29,913 nt of DNA, from NCBI GenBank assembly GCA_013043995.1, contig JABEVL010000029.1:1-29913 (forward strand). Reading direction: 5' to 3'. Position 1 is the stretch's first letter. Each line of letters begins with the position of its first letter. A program made the translations under genes and the position numbers. The stretch is from Spirochaetales bacterium. Its GTDB lineage: Bacteria > Spirochaetota > Spirochaetia > JABEVK01. The notes beneath the pieces are model-generated. The model saw nothing but the letters and a program-made list of their open reading frames with translations, ran no database searches and was not told where the DNA came from. Below, one piece after another: positions 2,288-29,913 of the stretch.

Positions 2288-5200
2288 ATGAGAGATATTC
2301 AAGAATTTGACAGCATTTTGATCAAGCTGGCCTCGCCGGAACAGATCCGGGCGTGGTCGTACGGCGAAGTCAAGAAACCAGAAACCATTAACTACAGAAC
2401 CCTCAGACCCGAAAAAGACGGTCTGTTCTGTGAGAGAATCTTTGGTACGACGAAAGAGTGGGAGTGTTACTGCGGAAAGTTCAAGTCCATCCGCTATAAG
2501 GGCGTCATTTGCGACAGGTGCGGCGTTGAGGTCACGCACTTTAAGGTCCGCCGCGAAAGAATGGGGCACATTGAGCTCGCCAGTCCCGTTTCTCATATTT
2601 GGTATTACCGCTCTGTGCCCAGCCGCATGGGCTTGCTTCTCGATCTTCCCATTGCAGCGTTGCGCTCCATTCTCTACTACGAAAAATACATCGTTACTGA
2701 CGCCGGTGATACGGACCTGAAACGTGGGCAGTTGTTGACAGAAGAAGAGTACATGGAAGCCCAGGACAGGTACGGGATGACCTTCAGCGCCGGAATTGGT
2801 GCCGAAGCAATTCGTACGATGCTAGATACGCTCAATTTGGATCAGATGTCGGCAACCTTGCGTCAAAAGATGGTCGAGAAGGGCAACAAGGTTGACAAGC
2901 GTCTTTTGAAGCGGATCGAAATCGTCGAGAATTTCCGCGACTCCGGCAACAAGCCGAGCTGGATGATCATGGATGTTATTCCGGTGATACCGCCGGAACT
3001 GCGCCCCATGGTTCAGCTCGATGGAGGCCGTTTTGCCACTTCCGACCTGAACGACCTCTACCGGCGTGTGATCAACAGAAATAACCGGTTGAAACGACTC
3101 ATCGCCCTCAACGCTCCTGACATCATCATCCGGAACGAAAAAAGGATGCTGCAGGAAGCTGTGGACGCTTTGTTTGACAACAGTAAAAAGAAAAAAGTTG
3201 TCAAAGGGGCTTCGAACCGTCCGCTTAAGTCACTCTCTGACCTTCTGAAGGGCAAGCAAGGTCGTTTCCGCCAAAACTTGCTGGGAAAGCGCGTCGATTA
3301 CTCGGGACGTTCTGTCATCGTCGTCGGCCCCGAACTGAAACTCCATCAGTGCGGTCTGCCGGCCAAGATGGCCCTCGAACTTTTCAAGCCCTTCATCATG
3401 AAAAAGCTTGTCGAAAAAGACGTTGTTTACAACATCAAAAAGGCCAAGACCCTCGTCGAACAAGAAACGGAAGAAGTCTGGGCGATTCTGGACGACGTCG
3501 TGAAAGAACACCCCATCCTTTTGAATCGTGCGCCGACTTTGCACCGTTTGGGAATTCAAGCTTTCGAGCCTGTTCTTGTCGAAGGTAAGGCGATTGAGCT
3601 CCACCCCCTGGTTTGCCACGCTTACAACGCCGACTTTGACGGCGACCAGATGGCCGTTCACGTTCCTTTGACCCAGGCTGCGCAGATTGAGTGCTGGACT
3701 TTGATGCTGGCTCCCAACAACCTCTTGAACCCTGCCAACGGAACCCCCATCGTCTTCCCCTCGCAGGACATGGTTTTGGGGATCAACTACTTGACTCGTG
3801 CCATGCCCAAGGCCCAGGGTTCGGGACGTCTTTACTCAAGTCTTGAAGAAGTTCAGATGGCCGTTGAGGCTGGAGCATTGCACTATCAAGCCCCGATCCG
3901 CTGCCGCCACCGAAAAATGGGCGACGCCTACTTCGAGACAACTGCGGGTCGGCTGATTCTCAATGATGAGCTGCCCGAGGAAATTGAGTTTGTCAATGAA
4001 GCTATGGGTGACAAGCAGATTAAAGCCTTCATCGCCCGTGTCTACGCCAAGCATGGTCCCTACTTGACCGTCCGCATGCTCGACATCATCAAAAACATGG
4101 GATTCCGGTATGCGACGATCTTTGGGGCGTCCATCGGTCTTGCCGACGTTGTGATTCCCAAGGAAAAGTCCACCCTGATCAAGGGCGCTAACGACGAAGT
4201 GGCTAAAATTCAGCGCCAGTACCTCGACGGTGTTATCACGGGCGAGGAACGCTACAACAAGGTCGTTGACACCTGGTCCAAGACCAACGACGAGCTGACC
4301 GACATCATGATGAAGACCCTCAAACAAGACAAGGACGGTTTCAACTCGATTTACATGATGGCCGACTCGGGAGCGCGAGGTTCCAAGAACCAAATTCGTC
4401 AGTTGGCAGGTATGCGCGGTTTGATGGCGAAGCCCTCAGGCGATATCATTGAACTCCCCATCCGTTCGAACTTTAAAGAAGGTCTCTCGGTTATCGAATT
4501 TTTTATCTCGACGAACGGTGCTCGAAAAGGTCTGGCGGACACGGCTCTTAAAACAGCCGACGCCGGCTACCTGACTAGAAGGCTGGTCGACATCGCGCAG
4601 GACGTCGTGGTGAACGACGAGGACTGCGGTACGATCAACGGTATCGACGTTTCGGCCATCAAGGATGGTGAGGAGGTTCGTGAATCTCTCTCCGAGCGCA
4701 TTTCGGGCCGATTTACCCTGGAGCGCGTCAAGCATCCCATCACCGGTGAAATTATCGTCGACGTCAACGAAGAGATATCGAACGAAAAAGCTCTGGCGAT
4801 TGAAGAATTGGGCATTGAAACTGTCCGGGTTCGTTCTGTCCTGACCTGTGAAGCCAAGCATGGGGTCTGTCAAAGATGCTACGGCCGAAATTTGGCAACC
4901 AACAGGACTGTCAATATCGGCGAAGCTGTCGGTATTATCGCGGCGCAGTCCATCGGCCAGCCTGGTACTCAGCTCACGATGCGAACCTTCCATATCGGCG
5001 GTGTTGCAACAAAGGGTGCCGAAGAAAACAAAACGGTCCTCAAGTACCCCGTCATCGTCAAAGAGGTCCGAGGAAGCTCGGTGCCGCAGCAAGACGGAAA
5101 CCTTCTTTTCACGCGTAAAGGAAGCCTGACCGTGGCGAAAATTTTCGACACGATTGAGGTGGGTGCCGGCGATAAACTCGTTGTCCAGGAAGGACAAAAG

Positions 5201-6550
5201 GTGATCGACGGTTTGCCTCTGATCGAACGAAAGGGTCAAACTGTCACCTCAAAACATATTGCCTTTGTCTACATCAAGGACAAACGCCTTTTCCTGGTCT
5301 CACAGGAGATGAAGGTCGAGATTCGAAACGGCTCGACGCTTTTTGTCAAAGCAGGCGACGTCGTTGCCGCGAATGAAACACTTGCGACTTTTGACCAGTT
5401 TGCCGAGCCGATCATCGCTGAAGCAACCGGGATTGTCAAATTTAAGGATATCATCCTCGGAACGACACTGCGCGAAGAAGTAAACCCCGACACGGGAAAC
5501 ATCGAAAAGAAAATTACGGACTACGCCCTGGAAGAACTCGATCCTGCTATTTTCATTCTGGATGAGAATAATCTTGATAAGGTTTTGGCGTCCTACGTTC
5601 TTCCTGGCGGAGCCTACCTTTCGATTGAAGAGGGGACCAAGGTCCGCAGCGGCGCCGTGCTGGCCAAGTTGCTCAAAGAATCAGGCAAAACCCAGGATAT
5701 TACGGGTGGTTTGCCCCGAGTTCAGGAGCTTTTTGAGGCGCGCCGGCCCAAAAGCGGTGCTGTGCTTTCCAAAATTAGCGGTATTGCACGTCTGAAGCCG
5801 ATATCAAAAGGGAAGCGAATTATTGAGATCGAAGATCCTTACGGTGGCATTCATTTGCACAAGGTTCCCGTCGGAAAGCTTCTTCTCGTCCGCGACGGTG
5901 ACCCTGTAGAAGCCGGCGAACCCTTGTGTGACGGTACGGTTGACCCCCACGATGTGCTGGAAGTTTCGGGGGAAAACGCCTTGCAGGCGTTCTTAGTCAA
6001 CGAAGTTCAAGGAATTTACCGCCTTCAGGGTGTCAAAATCGACGACAAACACATCGGAATCATCATTCGTCAGATGATGCGTAAGGTCGAAATCATGGAA
6101 GTCGGCGACACCAAGTTTATTTTTGGTCAGTCGGTGGATAAGTACAACTTCCACAGGGAAAATGAACGGATCGTTCGCGAAGGTGGTCAGGCCGCCGTGG
6201 CTCGGCCTCTGCTTTTGGGGATCACCCGCGCTTCCCTCAACATCGAGTCGTTTATTTCTGCAGCTTCTTTCCAGGAGACGACAAAGGTGCTCACAAATGC
6301 GGCCATCGCCGGAAAAATTGATGAGCTCCGCGGCTTGAAGGAAAATGTCATCATCGGGCACCTGATACCTGCCGGTACTGGGATGAAGAAATATAAAAAT
6401 CTCAGGTTGTTCGATCAAAACCGGGAAGACTTGGACGCTCACATCGCTGAAATTCTTGAAACCCGCCGACGCGACAAAGAACAGGCGGCCCTCGAAGAAA
6501 ATCGTAAAGCGATGGCGATGATGGAAGAGGAGTCTGACGACGAAGAATGA
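2288..6550 (+). CDS. rpoC: RNA polymerase beta' subunit
   Basis: N-terminal zinc site CYCGK...CDRC, catalytic [35 protein letters not shown]-like [12 protein letters not shown]; SD GGAG upstream. Confidence 0.99.
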
Positions 6551-6571
6551 AAGGGGGGCGGGGCAGGTCTC

Positions 6572-6601
6572 TTGCCCTGCCTGCCTGATCTGTGCTACTG
6601 T
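6572..6601 (+). promoter_or_regulatory. Possible sigma70 promoter for rpsL-rpsG
   Basis: TTGCCC (6572-6577), 18 bp spacer, extended -10 TGcTACTGT (6593-6601). Overlaps a GC-rich hairpin (6557-6581) that has no U-tract. Confidence 0.35.
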
Positions 6602-6701
6602 AACCTGATTTTCTGGGGCCCGACATGCTGACCTTTTGTTAAAAGGACGGGTACCCGGGATGGAATGTGGTTGCCATTGGCAACCTGTCATGGAGAGCTT
6701 C

Positions 6702-7076
6702 ATGCCTACCATTAACCAGTTGGTGCGCTCTGGTCGAGACAAGGTTCTTTCAAAAACCAAGTCTCCTGCTTTGCAATCCTGTCCTCAAAAACGTGGTGTT
6801 TGTACTCGTGTAATGACGGTTACACCCAAAAAACCGAACTCAGCTCTGAGAAAAGTTGCCCGTGTTCGCCTTTCCAACGGAATTGAAGTGACGGCTTACA
6901 TTCCTGGCATTGGGCACAACCTTCAGGAACACTCTGTTGTCGTGATTCGCGGCGGTAGGGTTAAGGACCTTCCGGGTGTTCGTTACCACATCATCCGTGG
7001 AGCCAAAGACGCTCTGGGTGTTGCTAAGCGGATGAGAAGTCGCTCAAAATACGGCGCAAAACGGCCAAAGGCGTAA
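6702..7076 (+). CDS. rpsL: 30S ribosomal protein S12
   Basis: [35 protein letters not shown]. Start placed at ATG 6702 (SD GGAG at 6692-6695), not the ORF-track TTG at 6636. Confidence 0.99.
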
Positions 7077-7089
7077 GGGGGATTTTTAA

Positions 7090-7560
7090 ATGCCGAGAAA
7101 AAGCTATGACGCAAACCGTCCTCTCTCTCCGGACCCCTTGCATAACTCCATTGTCGTGGCGAAATTTGTCCGCCGCATGATGCAGCACGGCCAGCTGATG
7201 ACCTCTCAAAAGATCCTTGAGGGTGCTTTTGGGATTCTGAAAGAAAAATCAGGCCGTGAACCTTTGGAAGTTTTTCTGAAGGCTCTTGATAACGTCAAGC
7301 CTGTTGTTGAGGTTAAGTCCCGCCGAGTTGGTGGGTCAACCTACCAAGTGCCTGTTGAAATTCGAGACTCTCGCCGCGAAGCCCTTTCGCACCGCTGGAT
7401 CATTCTTGCGAGCAGAGGACGGAGTGGAAAGTCGATGGCAGAGAAACTGGCTGCCGAGCTTTTTGATGCTTTTAATAACACAGGGACAGCCTTTAAGAAA
7501 AAAGAGGATACTCATCGCATGGCTGAGGCCAATAAAGCCTTCAGTCATTACAAGTGGTAG
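7090..7560 (+). CDS. rpsG: 30S ribosomal protein S7
   Basis: PDP..NS, VEVKSRRVGGSTYQVP, KKKEDTHRMAEANKAFSHY; follows rpsL. Confidence 0.98.
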   Translation: MPRKSYDANRPLSPDPLHNSIVVAKFVRRMMQHGQLMTSQKILEGAFGILKEKSGREPLEVFLKALDNVKPVVEVKSRRVGGSTYQVPVEIRDSRREALSHRWIILASRGRSGKSMAEKLAAELFDAFNNTGTAFKKKEDTHRMAEANKAFSHYKW

Positions 7561-7577
7561 ATTCTCTGATTTGATAG

Positions 7578-7606
7578 TTGACAGAAGTTTTGCAATCTGT
7601 TAGCTT
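7578..7606 (+). promoter_or_regulatory. sigma70 promoter upstream of the tuf leader
   Basis: Perfect TTGACA (7578-7583), 17 bp spacer, extended -10 TGtTAGCTT (7598-7606). Confidence 0.75.
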
Positions 7607-7612
7607 GTCCAA

Positions 7613-7931
7613 GAGTTTTTGACCCTTCGGGGCAAGTGCTAAAATAGGCTTAAGCCTCCTTTGGCACCTCTGCCGGAAGGTAGCGTTCTTTGGTGGTGTT
7701 TGAAAGAAAAGGCAAACTGCTGATTTTGTCAGTAAGTGCGTTTCTTGGATAAACCCAAGTCATTTTGACTGTTGTACTTACGACCGTCCGATGTCTAACC
7801 TCTTTGCGCACCTCTGGCAGAAAACGATAAAGATCATTTAAGATCTTTGCACCATTTTTTAATTAGAATGGTTTAAGTTTGAAACCTAATAGGTTGCTGT
7901 ACTTATTGAAAAATAAGCCAAGGAGGAAGGG
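7613..7931 (+). ncRNA. Candidate structured cis-regulatory 5' leader of the tuf-S10 operon (family unassigned)
   Basis: About ten short hairpins including cUUCGg, GGAA and GAAA tetraloops, plus a 10-bp long-range anti-SD/SD pairing (7655-7665 with 7917-7926). No ORF with an SD. No match by eye to RNA families I know. Confidence 0.5.
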
Positions 7932-9119
7932 ATGGCTAAGGAAAACTTCGTTCGTTCGAAGCCCCATATCAACGTTGGAACTATTGGTCACGTCGACCAT
8001 GGTAAAACGACCTTAACTGCTGCACTCACGTCTTACTGTGCTAAGAAGCATGGTGGAAAAGAAATGAAATACGAGGATATCGATAACGCTCCTGAAGAAA
8101 AAGAGCGCGGTATCACGATTAATACGCGGCACGTTGAGTACGAATCTAATGCTCGTCACTACGCCCACGTCGACTGTCCCGGACACGCTGACTATGTTAA
8201 AAACATGATCACGGGTGCTGCACAGATGGATGGTGCTATTCTTTTGGTTGCGGCCGACTCGGGTCCGGAGCCGCAAACGCGCGAACATATTCTTTTGGCT
8301 AAACAGGTCGGGGTTCCTAATATGGTCGTCTTCATGAACAAGATGGACCTTGCTGACCCTGAATTGGTTGAACTTGTTGAAATGGAAGTTCGAGATCTTT
8401 TGACTCTTTACGGGTTTAATGGTGAAAAAACTCCTTTTATCAAAGGTTCGGCTTTCAAGGCCATGTCTAATCCCAACGATCCTGAGGCGACAAAGTGTCT
8501 TGATGAGCTCCTTGAAACCATGGATAAGTACTTTATCATTCCTGAACGTCCTCTGGATAAACCTTTCCTGATGCCGATTGAAGACGTTTTTTCGATTTCT
8601 GGTCGCGGTACCGTTGTTACGGGCCGTGTCGAACAGGGTAAGGTTAAAATTGGTGATACTTGTGAAATTGTTGGAATTAAACCGACTCTTTCAACGGTTA
8701 TTACTGGCGTTGAAATGTTCAATAAAAATCTGGATGCGGGTCAGGCTGGCGATAATATCGGTGCTTTGTTGCGCGGTATTGAAAAGAACCAGGTGGAACG
8801 TGGTCAGGTTTTGGCAGCTCCTAAGTCTATTACGCCTCACACGAAATTTAAAGCGACAATTTACTGCTTGAGCAAGGAAGAGGGTGGCCGTCATAATCCG
8901 TTCTTCACTGGCTATCGCCCCCAGTTCTACTTCCGAACGACGGACGTAACGGGTTCGGTAACCCTTCCTGCTGATAAGCAAATGGTTATGCCTGGCGATA
9001 ACACGGAACTAACTGTCGAATTGATCCATCCTATTGCTATGGATAAAGGACTTCGCTTTGCCATCCGTGAAGGTGGACGCACTGTTGCTTCCGGCCAAGT
9101 TATTGAAGTTATTCAGTAA
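7932..9119 (+). CDS. tuf: Elongation factor Tu
   Basis: [22 protein letters not shown]. The [10 protein letters not shown] and [12 protein letters not shown] segments resemble Borrelia-type EF-Tu. Strong SD AAGGAGG. Confidence 0.99.
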
Positions 9120-9131
9120 AAGAATGAGTAA

Positions 9132-9165
9132 AAGTTCCGTTCTTAGGAGCGGAACTTCTTTTTTT
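9132..9165 (+). terminator. Intrinsic terminator between tuf and rpsJ
   Basis: 11-bp stem AAGTTCCGTTC/GAGCGGAACTT, loop TTAG, followed by C and T7. Confidence 0.8.
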
Positions 9166-9176
9166 GGGAGATAGGG

Positions 9177-9485
9177 ATGGCAAGTGACAGAATTCGTGTA
9201 AGATTGCGCGGTTTCGATGTAGAGTTGGTTGATCAGAGTGCGAAAGCAATCGTGCAGACCGTAAACAAAGCGGGAACAAAGGTGGCAGGCCCTATTCCGC
9301 TTCCTACGAAGATCAATAAGTTTACTGTTTTGCGATCTCCTCACGTCAATAAAAAGTCTCGGGAACAATTTGAAATGCGAACGCACAAGCGTTTGATTGA
9401 TATTCTCGAGCCCACCCCCGCAGTTATGGAAGCTTTAATGAAATTAGAGCTCCCGGCTGGTGTCGATGTGGATATTAAGCAGTAA
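9177..9485 (+). CDS. rpsJ: 30S ribosomal protein S10 (NusE)
   Basis: [41 protein letters not shown]. Confidence 0.99.
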
Positions 9486-9500
9486 TACTGAGGTTAGAAA

Positions 9501-10121
9501 ATGATCGGAGTTATCGGAAGAAAGATTGGGATGACTCAGGTTTTCGATGAAAGTGGAAAACTCACACCTGTCACCGTGATTAAAGTAGAACCGAATGTTG
9601 TTTTAGCTCAGCGTGAGATGGAAAAACATGGTTATAAGGCCTTGGTTGTTGGGACTACTCCTGCAAAAGAAAAGGCTTTAACAAAACCTGAACTAGGTCA
9701 ATTTGTCGAAGGTGTCGCTCCTCAACGTTTAGTTTTGGAGTTTCGTAACTTTGAAAAAGATTGCAAGGTTGGTGAAAGTTTTGGCCTTGAGCTTTTCGAA
9801 AATACTGGTTTTGTTGATGTGAGCGGTGTCTCGAAAGGAAAGGGTTTCCAAGGCGTTATGCGCCGCTACAACTTTAAGGGCGGTGAAGAGACTCATGGCT
9901 CTAAGTTTCACCGTGAGCCTGGATCGACGGGTCAGTCGACGACACCTCGTAAAACCTTTAAGGGTGTCAAGTTGCCCGGTCATATGGGCCGTGAAAAGGT
10001 TACGATTCTGAATCTTCGCATCGTTAAGGTTGATCAAGAAAATCAAGTTGTTCTGGTGAAGGGAGCTATTCCTGGAGCTAGAAATAGTTATGTTATTGTT
10101 CGTCATGCGGTAAAGAGGTAA
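9501..10121 (+). CDS. rplC: 50S ribosomal protein L3
   Basis: GRKIGMTQVF, SKGKGFQGVMRR, HREPGSTG, GHMG. Confidence 0.99.
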   Translation: MIGVIGRKIGMTQVFDESGKLTPVTVIKVEPNVVLAQREMEKHGYKALVVGTTPAKEKALTKPELGQFVEGVAPQRLVLEFRNFEKDCKVGESFGLELFENTGFVDVSGVSKGKGFQGVMRRYNFKGGEETHGSKFHREPGSTGQSTTPRKTFKGVKLPGHMGREKVTILNLRIVKVDQENQVVLVKGAIPGARNSYVIVRHAVKR

Positions 10122-10126
10122 GGGAT

Positions 10127-10768
10127 ATGGAAAAGAAAGTCTATTCCGTTCAAGGAAAAGAGATTAAAACCATAACTCTTTCAGATGAGGTGTTTGCCCG
10201 AGAGATCAGTGAAGGTTCAATCTATAACGCGATCAAGAATGAGCTTGCTAATCTCAGGGTTGGTACTGCAGATACGAAAACAAGAGCCGATGTCCACGGC
10301 GCTCACCAAAAACTTTGGAAACAAAAAGGCACTGGGCGTGCTCGTATGGGAACAAAGCAGTCCCCTGTTTGGGTAGGCGGTGGTGTGGTTTTTGGTCCTC
10401 ATCCGAGAGACTATAGTTATGCTATGCCTCGCAAGGTCAAGCAGTTGGCTATGAAATCGATTCTGAGTTTAAAGGCAGCCACTGACGGGTTTAAACTCGT
10501 GGAGAATTTTACAGTCCCAACGGGAAAAACGGCTGACCTTGTAAAGATTCTTAAGAATTTAGTAGCACTCAAAGAAAAGACTGTCATTATCCTGAAAGAT
10601 GATGATGAGTTTTTCAAACGGGCTGCGAGAAATCTTCCCTGGTTAAGTTTCCTTACTTTTAATCGACTTCGTGCTCACGATCTTTTTTACACCAAGAATC
10701 TTCTTGTTATGGAGTCAGCGGCAGTGAATCTTTCGGGGTTTTATTCCTCTGAAAAGAGTGAGGTTTGA
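10127..10768 (+). CDS. rplD: 50S ribosomal protein L4
   Basis: GTADTKTR, KQKGTGRAR, GGGVVFGPHPR; position in the S10 cluster. Confidence 0.98.
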   Translation: MEKKVYSVQGKEIKTITLSDEVFAREISEGSIYNAIKNELANLRVGTADTKTRADVHGAHQKLWKQKGTGRARMGTKQSPVWVGGGVVFGPHPRDYSYAMPRKVKQLAMKSILSLKAATDGFKLVENFTVPTGKTADLVKILKNLVALKEKTVIILKDDDEFFKRAARNLPWLSFLTFNRLRAHDLFYTKNLLVMESAAVNLSGFYSSEKSEV

Positions 10769-10770
10769 AG

Positions 10771-11076
10771 ATGGAAAACTTAGCTGTAATTATAAAGCCG
10801 CTTTTGACTGAAAAGTCGAATCTTTTGCGAGAAGGAAAGTCCAAGAAGTATGCTTTCCGTGTCGATGCAAGAGCGAATAAATTTCAGATCCGACAAGCTG
10901 TTGAAGCCCTGTTTAACGTAAAGACAACGAACTGTCACATCATTAATGTGATCGGCAAAAAGAAGAGTTTGGGGATGCGTGGTGGTCGCCGAACTCCTGG
11001 CACGACTTCGGCCTGGAAAAAAGCTTACGTTACTTTGGTCGCTGATCAGAAGATTGAAAAGTTTGAAGGCGTTTAA
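10771..11076 (+). CDS. rplW: 50S ribosomal protein L23
   Basis: IIKPLLTEKS, ANKFQIRQAVE, WKKAYVTL. ATG 10771 chosen (SD GAGGT at 10760-10764). Confidence 0.97.
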   Translation: MENLAVIIKPLLTEKSNLLREGKSKKYAFRVDARANKFQIRQAVEALFNVKTTNCHIINVIGKKKSLGMRGGRRTPGTTSAWKKAYVTLVADQKIEKFEGV

Positions 11077-11090
11077 CGGAGTAATATAAG

Positions 11091-11912
11091 ATGGCGATAA
11101 AAACTTTTAATCCAGTAACAAAAAGTCTTCGTGGTACTGCCCTCCTGCGTTACGATGACATAACTCGTTCGACCCCCGAAAAGTCTTTGACTACAGGTAA
11201 AATGGAGAAGGCTGGCCGTTCTAACGGTCGCATCAGTGTTCGCAGAAAGGGTGGTGGGCATAAAAAACTTCTGCGCTTGGTCGATTTTCACCGCGAAAAA
11301 TTTGGCGTGCCTGCCGTTGTTAAAGAAATCGAGTACGATCCCAATCGTTCTTCACACTTGGCCCTTTTGTCCTACAAGGATGGGGTTAAACGCTATATTC
11401 TGGCTCCGCGGGGCGTTAAAGTGGGTGATGCTTTGATGAGTGGACCACAGGCGCCCATTCGTGATGGCAATGCGCTTCCTTTGGAAAATATTCCTGTGGG
11501 AAGAAATATTCACGGCATTGAGTTGCAGTTGGGTAAAGGCGCTCAGTTGGCACGTTCTGCGGGTACATCGGCTCAACTGGCTGGTTTTGACGGTGATTAC
11601 GCGATAGTTAAACTTCCTTCCGGTGAAATGCGAATGGTCTTTAAAAAATGTATTGCGACCATTGGCGAAGTCGGAAATGAAGATCATATGAACGTCAAGA
11701 TTGGCAAAGCAGGGCGTAACCGTTGGCTGGGAAAACGTCCGTCCGTCCGTGGTGTGGCTATGAACCCTGTTGATCACCCCCTGGGCGGTGGACAGGGCAA
11801 GACCTCGGGTGGTCGTCATCCTGTAACCCCTTGGGGACAGCCAACAAGAGGTTATAAAACCCGTCAAAAGAACAAGTCTTCCGATCGCTTTATTATTAAG
11901 CGACGGAAGTAG
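11091..11912 (+). CDS. rplB: 50S ribosomal protein L2
   Basis: [35 protein letters not shown]. Confidence 0.99.
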
Positions 11913-11921
11913 GAGTGAATC

Positions 11922-12203
11922 GTGTCTCGATCTGTTAAGAAAGGTCCGTACATTGCGAAGCATCTCTACAAAAAAATTGTTGAGATGGGAAAGGATAACG
12001 ATCGAAAGATGGTTAAAACCTATTCTCGTACCTCCACTGTTATTCCTGAAATGGTGGGTTTCACAATTTCTGTCTACAATGGAAAAACTTGGATTCCTGT
12101 TTACATTACTGAGGATTTGGTTGGTCATAAATTAGGAGAATTTTCTCCTACTCGGACCTACCGTGGTCATGCGGGCTCCGATAAAAAGGCAGGGAAAAAA
12201 TAA
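11922..12203 (+). CDS. rpsS: 30S ribosomal protein S19
   Basis: [26 protein letters not shown]; GTG start. Confidence 0.99.
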
Positions 12204-26330: not shown

Positions 26331-27151
26331 TTGAGTCCCAACCGAATTTGAAGGCCCTGTTTCTGGGAGACGTCGTTGGACGTCCCGGCCGCAGGGCCGT
26401 TCTTTTTTTTCTCCCCCAGCTCATTGCGCAACGACAACCGGATTTGGTCGTCGTGAACGCTGAAAACGCCGCAGACGACGGGTTGGGCCTGCTGCTCGAA
26501 CATTATTCCGAGCTCCGCGCCTTGGGTGTCGACGTTGTGACAACGGGAAACCATGTCTGGGAAAAAACTGAGCTGAATGAACTTTTAGAAAAGGAAGACC
26601 GACTTTTAAGGCCTGCGAACTACCCCTCGCGTCTGCCCGGAAGAGGACTCGTGATTTTTACCCTAGAGAGGGGACCCCACATCGGGACCGAGGTTGCCGT
26701 CTTGAATTTGCAAGGGCGCTACAGGATGTCCCCGATTGACGACCCCTTTCGTGCGGGCTTTCAGCTTGTTGAAGAAACCAGAAAAAAAACAAAGCTCATC
26801 TTCATCGACTTTCATGCAGAAGATTTTTCTGAAAAGGAAGCCTTCCCTTGGGCGATGGACGGGACGGTGACGGGAGTCGTGGGAACCCATACGCATGTTG
26901 CGACCCAGGATGCGCGAATTCTTCCCCGGGGCTGCGCGGCCCAAACCGACCTCGGGATGTGCGGTCCCCTCAACTCCGTCATTGGTAGCCGTCCTGACCT
27001 CAGCATCGAGAGAAGTTTGACCGCAGTTCCCTTGCGGAATGAGGTACTTGAGGGGCCGGCCGAAGTCCGTGGACTTTGGATCGCGGCGGATACGGAAACC
27101 GGGTGCGCTGTTTTAGTAGAAAGCTTGTGTCTGGGACCGTACGGGGTCTGA
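26327..27151 (+). CDS. ymdB: YmdB-like (TIGR00282-type) metallophosphoesterase
   Basis: [48 protein letters not shown]; directly after rny. Exact start uncertain. Confidence 0.92.
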
Positions 27152-27158
27152 CTCGATC

Positions 27159-27890
27159 GTGGCTAGCCTGGGTCCCCGTCTTTTAGACTACCTCGTTGAA
27201 CTTTTTCCCGACCAAACCCGCGAGTCCTTGTTCGCTCGGATCCTTTGCGGTGACGTGGACGTGGACGGGGAGCGCATAAAAGACCCGAAGACCCGCGTTA
27301 ATCCGGGAGCCGGAGTGGCTCTCAGCAGCAAGAAGTTTGTCAGCCGCGGCGGATTAAAACTGGAAGCTGCACTGGAACTCTGGAAGCCTGCAGTTGAAGG
27401 TCGGGTTTGGTTGGACGCGGGGGCCTCGACAGGCGGCTTTACGGATTGCCTGTTGCAAAGAGGTGCCAAGCTTGTCCACGCCATCGACGTGGGGAACAAT
27501 CAGCTCGCCTGGAAATTGCGCTCAGATCCCCGCGTGAAAGTTCAGGAAAAAATGAACATCATGGACGTGAAGGAGCTTGATCCCCAGCCATTTGGGGCAA
27601 CGGCTGACCTTTCTTTTCGCTCATTAAGAGGTGCCGCCCGGAAAATCCTTTCCTTAACAACGGGCAACCTTCTTGTGGCTCTTGTCAAACCTCAGTTTGA
27701 GTGGCTCGATCCCGATCCTAAATTTTCGGGTATCGTTCCTGACCAACGAAGTTCCAAGATCCTTGAAATTCTTTTTGCCGATTTGGCGTCAGAAGGGGTT
27801 CGTGTTCGCGATTGTATCTTGAGTCCTATTCGCGGACACAAGGGGAACCAAGAATCACTTGTCTGGTTGGAGCGAATTTCAGGGGGTTAG
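27159..27890 (+). CDS. tlyA: TlyA family rRNA 2'-O-methyltransferase
   Basis: S4-like N-terminus, FVSRGGLKL, DAGASTGGFTDCLLQRGA, LVKPQFE, SPIRG.KGN.E. Confidence 0.95.
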   Translation: MASLGPRLLDYLVELFPDQTRESLFARILCGDVDVDGERIKDPKTRVNPGAGVALSSKKFVSRGGLKLEAALELWKPAVEGRVWLDAGASTGGFTDCLLQRGAKLVHAIDVGNNQLAWKLRSDPRVKVQEKMNIMDVKELDPQPFGATADLSFRSLRGAARKILSLTTGNLLVALVKPQFEWLDPDPKFSGIVPDQRSSKILEILFADLASEGVRVRDCILSPIRGHKGNQESLVWLERISGG

Positions 27891-27897
27891 AGGTCCT

Positions 27898-27990
27898 CCC
27901 TTACAAATGGATTAGCTGTCAGCACCGGTGATTTTCGGAACTTTATCAGCGGTGCTGACAAGCCAAACCCGGTCGAAATCGATGTTAGAT
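27898..27990 (-). mobile_element. Degenerate attC-like integron cassette recombination site
   Basis: On the minus strand, RYYYAAC (ATCTAAC) overlaps the toxin stop codon, followed by a 5-nt spacer, an L''-like TTTCGACC and a perfect 11-bp inverted repeat (27917-27927/27950-27960). The right end has only GTAAGGG instead of GTTRRRY. Confidence 0.5.
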
Positions 27991-28407
27991 GTCTTCCTTC
28001 ATGAATGGATTCACCAGCAAGACTCCCCGGTAAGTTTGGCCTGGATTCATGTCTTCGGAAAAGACAAATTCACAATTTGCCTTTTCGGCAGCTGCGATGA
28101 TCAGAGAATCCCAAAACGGTAGCCTCGAGATCGTACCAATGTCGATGGCTTCCTCAATCAACTCAAGATCATTATTCACCACCTCGAGGTTTCGAAAATT
28201 ATGGACGATGTTCTTGATGATGAAGGTATCGGCTTTCAACTTGGTTGAGGCTACGACATAAAACTCTTTGATGACCTGAGTTGAGATTACGGGCTGGTGA
28301 ACTTCTACCAATCTTTTGAGAATGTTTCTTGCTCGGTCTCGTTTCCCCAAGTCACGCTGGTCGATTGAGTAAACAAACAGGTTTGTGTCGACGAAAATTT
28401 TAGACAC
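27985..28407 (-). CDS. PIN-domain (VapC-like) toxin
   Basis: IFVDTN, QVIKEF, WDSLIIAAA, SEDM acidic PIN tetrad. Probable GTG start at 28407 overlaps the antitoxin end. Confidence 0.9.
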   Translation of the reverse strand: MSKIFVDTNLFVYSIDQRDLGKRDRARNILKRLVEVHQPVISTQVIKEFYVVASTKLKADTFIIKNIVHNFRNLEVVNNDLELIEEAIDIGTISRLPFWDSLIIAAAEKANCEFVFSEDMNPGQTYRGVLLVNPFMKEDI

Positions 28408-28624
28408 GGTAAAGATCTTCTCTGTTCCAGCGTTCACCAGAAGACGACACGTTTGCCTTATCCATCAAAGAAAACATGTCATCAAGCCACCTATTTTGTT
28501 TCCTTACAACGGTTTGTTCAATCAGCCGTCGGACCAAAACATTGAAAGAGACATTGTGTTGGCGAGCGTACTCTCGACCCGCTTGGAGCACATCCTCTTC
28601 AATGGAAAGCGTGATGTTTTTCAT
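28400..28624 (-). CDS. Ribbon-helix-helix-type antitoxin
   Basis: MKNITLSIEEDVLQAGREYARQHNVSFNVLVRRLI (beta strand plus two helices); SD GAGGTG; directly upstream of and overlapping a PIN gene. Confidence 0.85.
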   Translation of the reverse strand: MKNITLSIEEDVLQAGREYARQHNVSFNVLVRRLIEQTVVRKQNRWLDDMFSLMDKANVSSSGERWNREDLYRV

Positions 28625-28634
28625 ATTCACCTCA

Positions 28635-28668
28635 CACATAGTATGTGCGCACTCGTAAAGACCGTCAA
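28635..28668 (-). promoter_or_regulatory. TA promoter with palindromic operator
   Basis: TTGACG (28668-28663), 17 bp spacer, CATACT (28645-28640). The palindrome CACATA-N-TATGTG (28635-28647) covers the -10 box. Confidence 0.75.
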
Positions 28669-28704
28669 GCTTTTCGCTCTTGGCGCCCGCAGGGTCCGCC
28701 TAGA

Positions 28705-28789
28705 GCTGAACCTGCGTTTTGGGTGGCACGAGCCTTGTTATGCAAGGGGCGTGACGGCCAAATAAGTCAGGTTGAAAAATATGTTAAGT
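28705..28789 (-). mobile_element. Truncated attC-like site
   Basis: On the minus strand: ACTTAAC (RYYYAAC) 10 nt after the vapC stop, a 5-nt spacer, then TTTCAACCTGAC pairing with GCAGGTT with an extrahelical A, and a long imperfect internal stem. No GTTRRRY after L'. Confidence 0.6.
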
Positions 28790-28798
28790 GCAAAAGAA

Positions 28799-29200
28799 CT
28801 AGTTGTTCCACCAGGTCTCGATTTTCAAGCCCTCTATCCGACCGAATTCTTTGGTATTGCGAGTTACGAGAGTTCCGTCGTGGAACCTGGTAATAGCGGC
28901 AATCAGAAGGTCATTTGGTCCCACAATTTTGCCTTCCTCCTCGGTTTGCTTTCGAATTGCAGCATATTCGTAGCAGACCGGCTCATCGAAAGGCGTGACT
29001 TCAAATGGCTCCAGAAATTGCTCGAGCTGATCTTGCGTCTTCTGAGGATTCTTGCTCTTGTATGCGCCCAGAAGAAGCTCGGCCTTCACCAGCGATGGAA
29101 TCTTGATTTCGTTGGGCGGTGTAGAGAGTATTTTGCGTCGGATTGATTCGGAGGATCCGTTCAAGAAGTAAATGCACGTATTGGAGTCGAGAAAATACAT
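28799..29200 (-). CDS. vapC: VapC family PIN toxin
   Basis: YFLDSNTCI, AELLLGA, GPNDLLIAA, LVTRNTKEF.RIEGL; TGATG overlap with the upstream antitoxin. Confidence 0.95.
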   Translation of the reverse strand: MYFLDSNTCIYFLNGSSESIRRKILSTPPNEIKIPSLVKAELLLGAYKSKNPQKTQDQLEQFLEPFEVTPFDEPVCYEYAAIRKQTEEEGKIVGPNDLLIAAITRFHDGTLVTRNTKEFGRIEGLKIETWWNN

Positions 29201-29430
29201 CAGAAGGACTCTCGCGGACTATCACCGGTGAATTGTGGCTGAGCAGGTCTTTCAAATGTCTCATCGGAGATCACACCGTAAAGGTCTTCGTATCCCTTTG
29301 GATATACAGGCTCGACCTTCGATCGTATTTGGTCGGCTACCCATTTTGATATCGAGACATGCTGACGTGACGCAGCGCCCTCGACCTTTCTCAAGGTTGC
29401 TTCATCGATGTAGAGAGAGATTTGCGGCAT
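29200..29430 (-). CDS. CopG/RHH-type VapB antitoxin
   Basis: MPQISLYIDEATLRKVEGAASRQHVSISKWVADQI; translationally coupled to vapC. Confidence 0.85.
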   Translation of the reverse strand: MPQISLYIDEATLRKVEGAASRQHVSISKWVADQIRSKVEPVYPKGYEDLYGVISDETFERPAQPQFTGDSPRESF

Positions 29431-29446
29431 GAGATCCCCCTAAGCA

Positions 29447-29495
29447 ACAATAAGTCGCTCTGGATGAACTGTCAAGTATATGTCCACGTATACTT
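29447..29495 (-). promoter_or_regulatory. TA promoter with palindromic operator
   Basis: TTGACA (29475-29470), 17 bp spacer, TATTGT (29452-29447). The inverted repeat AAGTATA-N8-TATACTT (29474-29495) overlaps the -35 box. Confidence 0.8.
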
Positions 29496-29636
29496 ATTCC
29501 GATTTCCCCTGCCCGAAGCGTCCGGCTCCTCCTATATTTTTCGTCCAGCGACGCCCGCGACTCCTTTTGATTTCACCTCATACCTCTCCAGTTTTAGTTG
29601 GTATTTCACTGGGCCGAAATCCGGATACAAAGCTTT

Positions 29637-29913
29637 TCGTGTAGCCAGAACCCACATCGTCTCGATCATTTAGGAATTGCTTTTGGAGCTTCCCCATCGC
29701 CAATTCGTCTTCACGGTACCCAAGATCCTTAAGCCCTATTTCAAAAACGACAAGCGGCTCTTCGGCGAGGTCTCGAAGTTGATTTTCGAGTTGCTGTCGG
29801 GGTTCTTCAGCTTGGCGGCCCAGCGGGAGCTTTTGCGCGGGTGTGTCGCCTCTTACCAGTCGTTCGGAGAGTTTGCACGATTCCACCCGCATTGGCACGT
29901 TCTGGTCCTGGAA
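29637..29913 (+). pseudogene. IS91-family (HUH/Y2) transposase remnant, decayed at the 5' end, continuing beyond the window
   Basis: Manual translation from 29674: ELLLELPHRQFVFTVPKILKPYFKNDKRLFGEVSKLIFELLSGFFSLAAQRELLRGCVASYQSFGEFARFHPHWHVLVLE. This contains PHRQFVFT and the HUH motif HPHWH. An in-frame TAG lies at 29671-29673, and only an SCSQ trace of the zinc knuckle remains, in another frame. Confidence 0.8.

Follow-up and report, generated by a model that had tools for sequence, protein, structure and literature searches.

Two VapBC cassettes with damaged attC sites beside tlyA: a probable piece of an integron cassette array in a Spirochaetales genome

What becomes of an integron cassette when its recombination site decays, and can the cargo genes stay behind? 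The question is raised by two toxin-antitoxin (TA) gene pairs beside the core gene tlyA in a stretch of 29,913 bp (the window), which is the whole of contig C238 in the metagenome-assembled genome (MAG) of a Spirochaetales bacterium (G000; 1.95 Mb, 327 contigs, 76% complete). The original prediction, made from the sequence alone, took the pairs for immobilised integron cassettes resembling a CALIN, a cluster of attC sites lacking an integron integrase. Our analysis largely supports that reading, to which we give a probability of about 80%: positions ~27886-29523 would be a short piece of a cassette array, consisting of two VapBC cassettes with damaged attC sites and lying between the convergent tlyA and gerM-like genes. 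The evidence is strong for the second pair (TA2) with the site that follows it (attC-B), and moderate for the first pair (TA1) with its site (attC-A). The two cassettes are ~800 and 826 bp long and both are read on the minus strand. Each would begin with a hairpin after the R' box of the previous site and continue with a promoter/operator, the antitoxin gene, the toxin gene and an attC site whose R'' box falls at, or a few bases past, the toxin stop codon. The prediction had named three outcomes that would count against it, namely that an attC model scores neither site, that the genome holds no intact attC family and that homologous TA pairs are never cassette-borne; all three turned out otherwise. 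The features of the two cassettes, from TA2 to the far end of TA1, are these:

29511 to 29523, minus strand: probable start hairpin of the TA2 cassette, from a pattern scan
29475 to 29447, minus strand: TA2 promoter, upstream of antitoxin 2, with 10 of 12 positions matching
29200 to 29430, minus strand: antitoxin 2, DUF6364-like (Pfam DUF6364, E 4.7e-4)
28799 to 29200, minus strand: vapC2, a PIN-domain toxin of 133 amino acids (aa), tRNA-fMet endonuclease type (Pfam PIN, E 2.5e-17)
28698 to 28792, minus strand: attC-B, a full-length, damaged attC site
28685 to 28697, minus strand: hairpin after the R' box of attC-B, the first bases of the TA1 cassette
28668 to 28640, minus strand: TA1 promoter, upstream of antitoxin 1
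28400 to 28639, minus strand: antitoxin 1, DUF6364-like (Pfam DUF6364, 27.1 bits, just below the cut-off)
27985 to 28437, minus strand: vapC1, a PIN-domain toxin of 150 aa (Pfam PIN, E 1.5e-9)
27914 to 27990, minus strand: attC-A, a probable attC remnant with R'', a spacer of 5 nucleotides (nt), L'' and a central stem-loop, and with no L' or R'
27886 to 27913, minus strand: diverged direct repeat of 28 nt, holding a vapC1 3' end and an R''-like heptamer, in the place where L' and R' of attC-A would be expected

The attC sites of this lineage were first recognised by reading the array repeats of a relative, G001, for their R''/L'' and L'/R' boxes; one of these repeats plainly resembles the spacer after vapC2. 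Five sites, of which G001 contributed three and G002 and contig C158 of G000 itself one each, served as seeds of a covariance model, R1. The G001 and G002 seeds adjoin the integron integrase gene intI, and no window sequence was included. Folded together with RNAalifold, the seeds adopt the canonical attC structure with an extrahelical base in L'', and 19 of the 39 pairs are compensated. All covariance scores given here are those of R1, a clade-specific model, and not of the standard model of IntegronFinder. In a comparison set of 41 relatives of G000, R1 found more than 120 sites in 22 genomes, many of them clustered as arrays, for example beside intI on contig C3 of G020. An alignment of 55 sites made from fetched loci is 88% paired, a share that falls to 28-38% after sliding the partners; among its 39 pairs, 32 show compensatory changes with both sides altered. 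The 50 distinct sites were turned into a sequence profile hidden Markov model (HMM) for searches with nhmmer. An Rfam scan of positions 27000-29913, with E values up to 10, gave chance matches only and no attC family.

The membership of attC-B in the attC family is certain. With filters off, R1 matches 28683-28792 on the minus strand over its full length with 39.2 bits (E 2.9e-8 in the window and 1.8e-6 over the whole MAG), and the 50-site HMM matches the site with an E value of 1.3e-10 at HMM positions 4-118. The R'' box (28783-28789), the L'' box (28770-28777) and the central stem are intact. Close relatives have intact attC sites of the attC-B subtype, so that the inactivating lesions can be named; they were read against the nearest of these sites, such as the site on contig C10 of G004 and the G001 seed site. 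A 4-nt deletion has cut L' to 6 nt (28709-28714), breaking five L-box pairs in the model alignment, and the R' position (28698-28704) has TCT in place of the family's GTT. Apart from these two lesions the site keeps everything, including the small hairpin after R', which follows R' in most of the 50 aligned sites and in which all three modelled pairs show compensatory changes.

The site after vapC1 is probably an attC remnant. Its R'' box (27984-27990) overlaps the stop codon of vapC1, its L'' box lies at 27971-27978, and the central stem (27917-27960) is perfect. The 50-site HMM matches 27956-27992 with an E value of 0.0073 at HMM positions 2-41, which comprise R'', the spacer, L'' and the beginning of the central stem. 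In a genome-wide search with a left-arm HMM, attC-A ranks fourth (E 0.06), beside the genuine second attC site of C158 (E 0.07). Position adds support: the remnant lies on the right strand, starts at the toxin stop and is one cassette length away from attC-B. Right-arm profile HMMs (L', R' and hairpin) matched neither site of the window, in keeping with decay. The 28-nt repeat that occupies the place of the right arm is identical to 27984-28011 at 22 of 28 positions, an agreement reached by none of 20,000 shuffles. It translates like the C-terminus of VapC1, resembles the 3' end of the vapC1 ortholog in G002, and is what remains of a second gene end of the vapC1 type; the only R' look-alike of attC-A, of the GTA type, falls within it. 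The right arm may have been lost through a deletion between two vapC1-type cassettes in tandem. The hairpin of attC-A, in its loop and inner stem (27924-27948), also agrees at 24 of 25 positions with the last 25 bases of contig C297 (6959-6983), and this contig end may be another copy of the attC-A subtype, split by assembly.

The left-half signature that the original prediction had seen after both toxins is present at 27971-27990 and 28770-28789, each time with an R'' box (RYYYAAC), a spacer of ~5 nt and L'', and both copies align to the family consensus. As a degenerate 20-mer it occurs nowhere else in the assembly. That 20-mer was defined from its own two copies, and the independent test is the 50-site HMM built from relatives, which has exactly two matches in the whole 29.9-kb window, at the two claimed sites. 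One of them is full-length and the other a half-site, and they lie 800 bp apart on the same strand. Between TA1 and TA2, no likeness was detected either between the toxins or between the antitoxins; gene duplication therefore does not account for the motif downstream of both toxins, and paralogy of the pairs was rejected as its origin.

The hairpins had been described as ~90 bp long. They are real, but when folded as single-stranded DNA their stems span only ~58 nt (27911-27968) and ~45 nt, because pairing of the outer R and L boxes has been lost. Intact control sites pair their R and L boxes in one long hairpin (-35.3 and -29.5 kcal/mol), whereas attC-A and attC-B pair their central stems only. 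Of an L' complementary to L'', 6 nt are left in attC-B and nothing in attC-A, and neither site has a GTT core at R', in agreement with the predicted loss of the canonical GTTRRRY. Cleavage by IntI requires the conserved AAC/GTT triplet within a paired R box. With both the pairing and the GTT lost, IntI should no longer be able to excise either cassette.

Both TA pairs lie on the minus strand, co-oriented as predicted, and each has the type II VapBC layout, with a PIN-domain toxin gene after a small overlapping antitoxin gene (overlaps of 38 nt in TA1 and 1 nt in TA2). The likely start of antitoxin 1 is the ATG at 28624. VapC2 scores 134 bits against NCBIfam NF047863, for which the cut-off is 140. 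The claim that each pair has its own promoter stands in part: the two promoters are placed correctly and their -35 and -10 elements are kept in the orthologous modules of G002 and G001, but the scan found two promoter-like sites against 1.6 expected from shuffles, which is not above chance. A 13-nt palindrome (28635-28647) covers the -10 element of the TA1 promoter, and the G002 ortholog retains the -35 element, the -10 element and the palindrome; for TA2, the -35 context is kept in G001. Acidic residues that would make up the PIN catalytic set are visible in both toxin translations. Judged by intact reading frames, conserved promoters and this putative acidic set, both modules are probably active.

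Chromosomal integrons are present in the lineage. The window itself contains no integron integrase, as the original prediction held; a CALIN has none within ~4 kb, and here 27.9 kb to the left of the array were covered, and the contig ends 483 bp past antitoxin 2. Outside it, the sole piece of intI in G000 lies on contig C132 (2-535; residues 1-178, cut by the contig end). It matches TIGR02249 with 95 bits over model positions 1-100, as against ~23 bits for the XerC and XerD models, and shares 44% identity with the complete 396-aa IntI of G001, including an unusual N-terminal extension of ~75 aa. A search for related loci with this IntI fragment gave no matches. Of the 41 relatives, 10 encode an IntI that passes the curated cut-off. 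The G001 array follows intI on its downstream side and shares its orientation, which is the 'inverted' layout known from Treponema (PMC3607928, PMC4889954), and G020 has the classical divergent layout. In G000, C158 carries an intact phd-PIN cassette between two attC sites, which provides the intact attC family and, with C132, the intI and further attC sites sought outside the window. No contig-end overlaps were found that join C238 to C132, C158, C111 or C237.

Two peculiarities of these integrons were seen along the way. The ~75-aa extension of the clade's IntI precedes the SAM-like domain, both in the C132 fragment and in the G001 enzyme (locus L065, 3878-5068), and in G001 it weakly matches the HARP domain (E 4e-4, below the cut-off), whose fold occurs in annealing helicases, enzymes that bind forked DNA. 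The small hairpin right after R' (3-5 bp stem, TTC-type loop) is present in most attC sites of the clade, for instance in G001 at 118-132, 2282-2296 and 3103-3118 of L065, and further at 8123-8137 of L066 and 3128-3142 of L070; it also follows the attI-like site beside intI in G001. In a circularised cassette the hairpin would sit right behind the cassette's own attC, and it may extend the recombination site in a clade-specific way.

Homologues of TA2 occur as cassettes in relatives. On contig C3 of G020 two attC sites flank a vapC2 homolog, ~8 kb from intI and inside a complete integron; in G033 an attC site begins 10 nt past the stop codon of the vapC2 homolog; and in G004 an attC site lies just upstream of the homolog of antitoxin 2 (68% identical). 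The G002 ortholog of TA1 (locus L117, contig C21, 5344-8787) shares 89% protein identity for VapC1 and 92% for the antitoxin, and its vapC1 continues for three more codons at the point that is R'' in the window. The ortholog shares its contig with tlyA, 17 kb away. TlyA identity with G002 is only ~62-63%, and the much greater likeness of TA1 suggests that this module moved horizontally in recent time. Evidently, these TA modules move in and out of cassette contexts.

The cassettes are bounded on one side by a core gene:

27159 to 27890, plus strand: tlyA, an FtsJ-like rRNA methyltransferase gene (Pfam FtsJ and S4) that bounds the insertion

The gene order rny-ymdB-tlyA is kept in eight relatives. 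The RNase Y of the window has its nearest named relative in a 'Spirochaetales bacterium' MAG (90% identity), and synteny with, and identity to, congeners still place C238 in the genus despite its low GC content. The likeness of tlyA to its relatives stops near 27872, and the relatives' TlyA proteins are 9-22 residues longer; the last ~5 codons and the stop codon of tlyA derive from inserted DNA. The empty site that had been proposed for relatives was seen in five of them (G001, G002, G003, G004 and G009), where tlyA is followed directly by the convergent gerM-like gene, then ptsI and der. In G000, contig C111 carries the gerM-like/ptsI/der block, preceded by the remnant of an IS3-type integrase core and an open reading frame of 706 aa without a Pfam match (C111 4356-7206, L049). 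An island thus occupies this site, empty in relatives, with the TA region at one of its edges and the C111 remnant and reading frame at the other. Upstream of the probable TA2 start hairpin no attC site could be recognised (R1 8 bits, no nhmmer match). The segment 29509-29528, which includes this hairpin and lies upstream of antitoxin 2, also has an exact 20-nt match at 3256-3275 of contig C7 (blastn-short, E 4e-4), inside a glutamate-synthase-like coding region.

On the other side, the predicted remnant of an IS91-type transposase gene was confirmed:

29674 to 29913, plus strand: fragment of an IS91-family (HUH) transposase gene, NF033538 positions 80-159, with its 3' end cut by the contig end

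It corresponds to residues 117-195 of the 441-aa transposase of G034 (49% identical). The fragment lacks ~116 N-terminal codons, the zinc-finger N-terminus and the terIS side, and carries an HUH-type motif at its very end, short of a full IS91, which would have a zinc-binding N-terminal domain, HUH and Y2 motifs, and terIS and oriIS ends. A second copy, at the contig end of C237 (1-366, L002), holds the N-terminal 118 codons with an in-frame TAG and has 88% nucleotide identity to the window copy over an 81-bp overlap; no complete copy is assembled in G000. On contig C15 of G034 (4000-12000, L210) a full-length IS91-family gene lies 160 bp from, and divergent to, the first attC site of an array; that genome (96% complete) has 25 attC matches, and no intI was found in it. 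The L'' boxes of attC sites often contain an IS91-type target tetranucleotide. The GTTC and hairpin at 28676-28706 were considered as an IS91 end and rejected.

Several observations weigh against taking both pairs for former cassettes. The nearest ortholog of TA2 (G001, 72% nucleotide identity) is without an attC site, that of TA1 (G002, 80% nucleotide identity) stands in an attC-free context, and the relatives searched yielded no vapC1-type homolog with an adjoining attC; cassette-borne homologues have thus been seen for the vapC2 type and not for the vapC1 type. R1 gives attC-A only 6-9 bits, with E above 1, which is not significant, and one false positive on contig C64, rejected as an attC site for its position inside a histidine-kinase coding sequence, outscores the attC-A left arm genome-wide. 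The R' GTT is also absent from 6 of the 50 array-borne sites of relatives, and its loss is therefore not proof of immobility. Binning and shared clade-specific features are the grounds for assigning the intI contig and C158 to the organism of the window contig, and the binning of the other cited contigs calls for care in a genome that is 76% complete and in which C238 is low in GC (0.479, below the 5th percentile of G000 contigs at 0.489; median 0.549). The missing vapC1-type homolog, the low attC-A score and the stronger false positive would suit a locus in which only TA2 was a cassette and TA1 is an ordinary mobile TA module, the 'left arm' being a chance likeness on a terminator hairpin between tlyA and vapC1. 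This is unlikely in our view, as the HMM matches the window in two places only, one of them the attC-A left arm, which has the strand, the start at the toxin stop and the 800-bp distance from attC-B that a cassette would give it; moreover, TA1 starts directly after the conserved cassette-start hairpin of attC-B, and the terminator reading is unsupported, the scan having found no terminator-like T-run at the hairpin after vapC1. A small CALIN that still works is a different matter, and quite unlikely. The clade's IntI, with its extra N-terminal domain, might tolerate an altered R' and a shortened L'; intI is present in G000, some relatives' array sites do without the GTT, and attC-B retains R'', L'', the central stem and the post-R' hairpin. 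Against this, neither strand of either site folds the R- or L-box duplex seen in intact sites, the right arm of attC-A is wholly absent, and the triplet that IntI needs in a paired R box is gone.

A further explanation concerns the way the cassettes reached tlyA, and we hold it to be very unlikely. One-ended transposition of IS91 co-mobilises the upstream (terIS) side (PMC13181058), and the window cassettes lie on that side of the transposase gene tnpA, so that an IS91-family element might have brought them by rolling-circle transposition running past terIS; G034, with its related full-length tnpA beside an attC array in the same divergent geometry and without a detected intI, offers a parallel. 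However, the window tnpA, devoid of its N-terminal codons and terIS side, is not the expected product of such a read-through, the oriIS end and the target tetranucleotide would lie beyond the contig end, and among the other 11 IS91-family matches in relatives only that of G034 shares a contig with an attC match. The link that the original prediction drew from the hairpin and GTTC to IS91 ends did not hold, these being ordinary features that attC-B inherited from the clade's attC family and that occur in sites with no IS91 nearby. Equally long odds attach to the wider notions that the tlyA-side cassettes are a relic of HUH-mediated relocation and that IS91 rolling-circle elements recurrently join, and perhaps move, integrase-less attC arrays in spirochaetes.

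The reading that we prefer, an array piece with two immobilised VapBC cassettes, suggests the following course of events. The cassettes may have arrived through IntI-mediated insertion at a non-canonical genomic site, or through rearrangement via the flanking IS91 and IS3 copies. Both attC sites are damaged on the side that IntI cleaves. Addiction modules, if active as proposed here, would resist deletion, and the TA genes may for that reason have survived while the attC sites decayed. The locus shows base by base how cassettes lose their mobility, with lesions that can be named and cargo genes that are intact, and it indicates that TA cargo can outlive its own recombination site. Cury et al. 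(2016, PMC4889954) proposed that clusters of degenerate attC sites mark a step on the way to stabilised cassettes, and this step is illustrated here. Since that route was proposed before, the locus is a well-resolved new example of a known concept and not a new kind of element. It also adds non-Treponema Spirochaetales to the lineages with chromosomal integrons and yields a clade-specific attC model.

Among known systems, the locus is most readily set beside CALIN elements (PMC4889954), with which it shares cassette-like units with attC sites away from any intI. It differs in that one site passes as attC and the other is a half-site, which is formally nearer to an isolated attC plus a remnant, and in that the exact lesions can be read against intact sites of the same subtype. 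Chromosomal cassettes away from attI are also known from insertion at attG and isolated attC sites (Loot et al., bioRxiv 10.1101/2022.09.11.507474), and such insertion would offer a route to tlyA; the junctions here are too decayed to reveal a G/TT crossover, and the flanking IS91 and IS3 remnants make rearrangement equally possible. As in ISCR1 and complex class 1 integrons (PMC6218425), a transposase gene of the IS91 (HUH) family adjoins integron-derived DNA, but that of the window is 5'-truncated, is unrelated to the context of the 3'-conserved segment (3'-CS) and gives no sign of having mobilised the cassettes. The TA cassettes of sedentary integrons (Vibrio; Richard et al. 2024, PMC13108822) are likewise type II systems with their own promoters; those described here lie outside an array, next to a core gene, with attC sites that appear inactivated, and would persist without being able to stabilise an array. 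The inverted-integrase integrons of Treponema (Wu et al. 2013, PMC3607928; PMC4889954) share the spirochaete host. The MAGs studied here belong to non-Treponema Spirochaetales, and their integrons are set apart by the classical layout found in G020, by the ~75-aa extension of IntI and by the hairpin that follows many attC sites.

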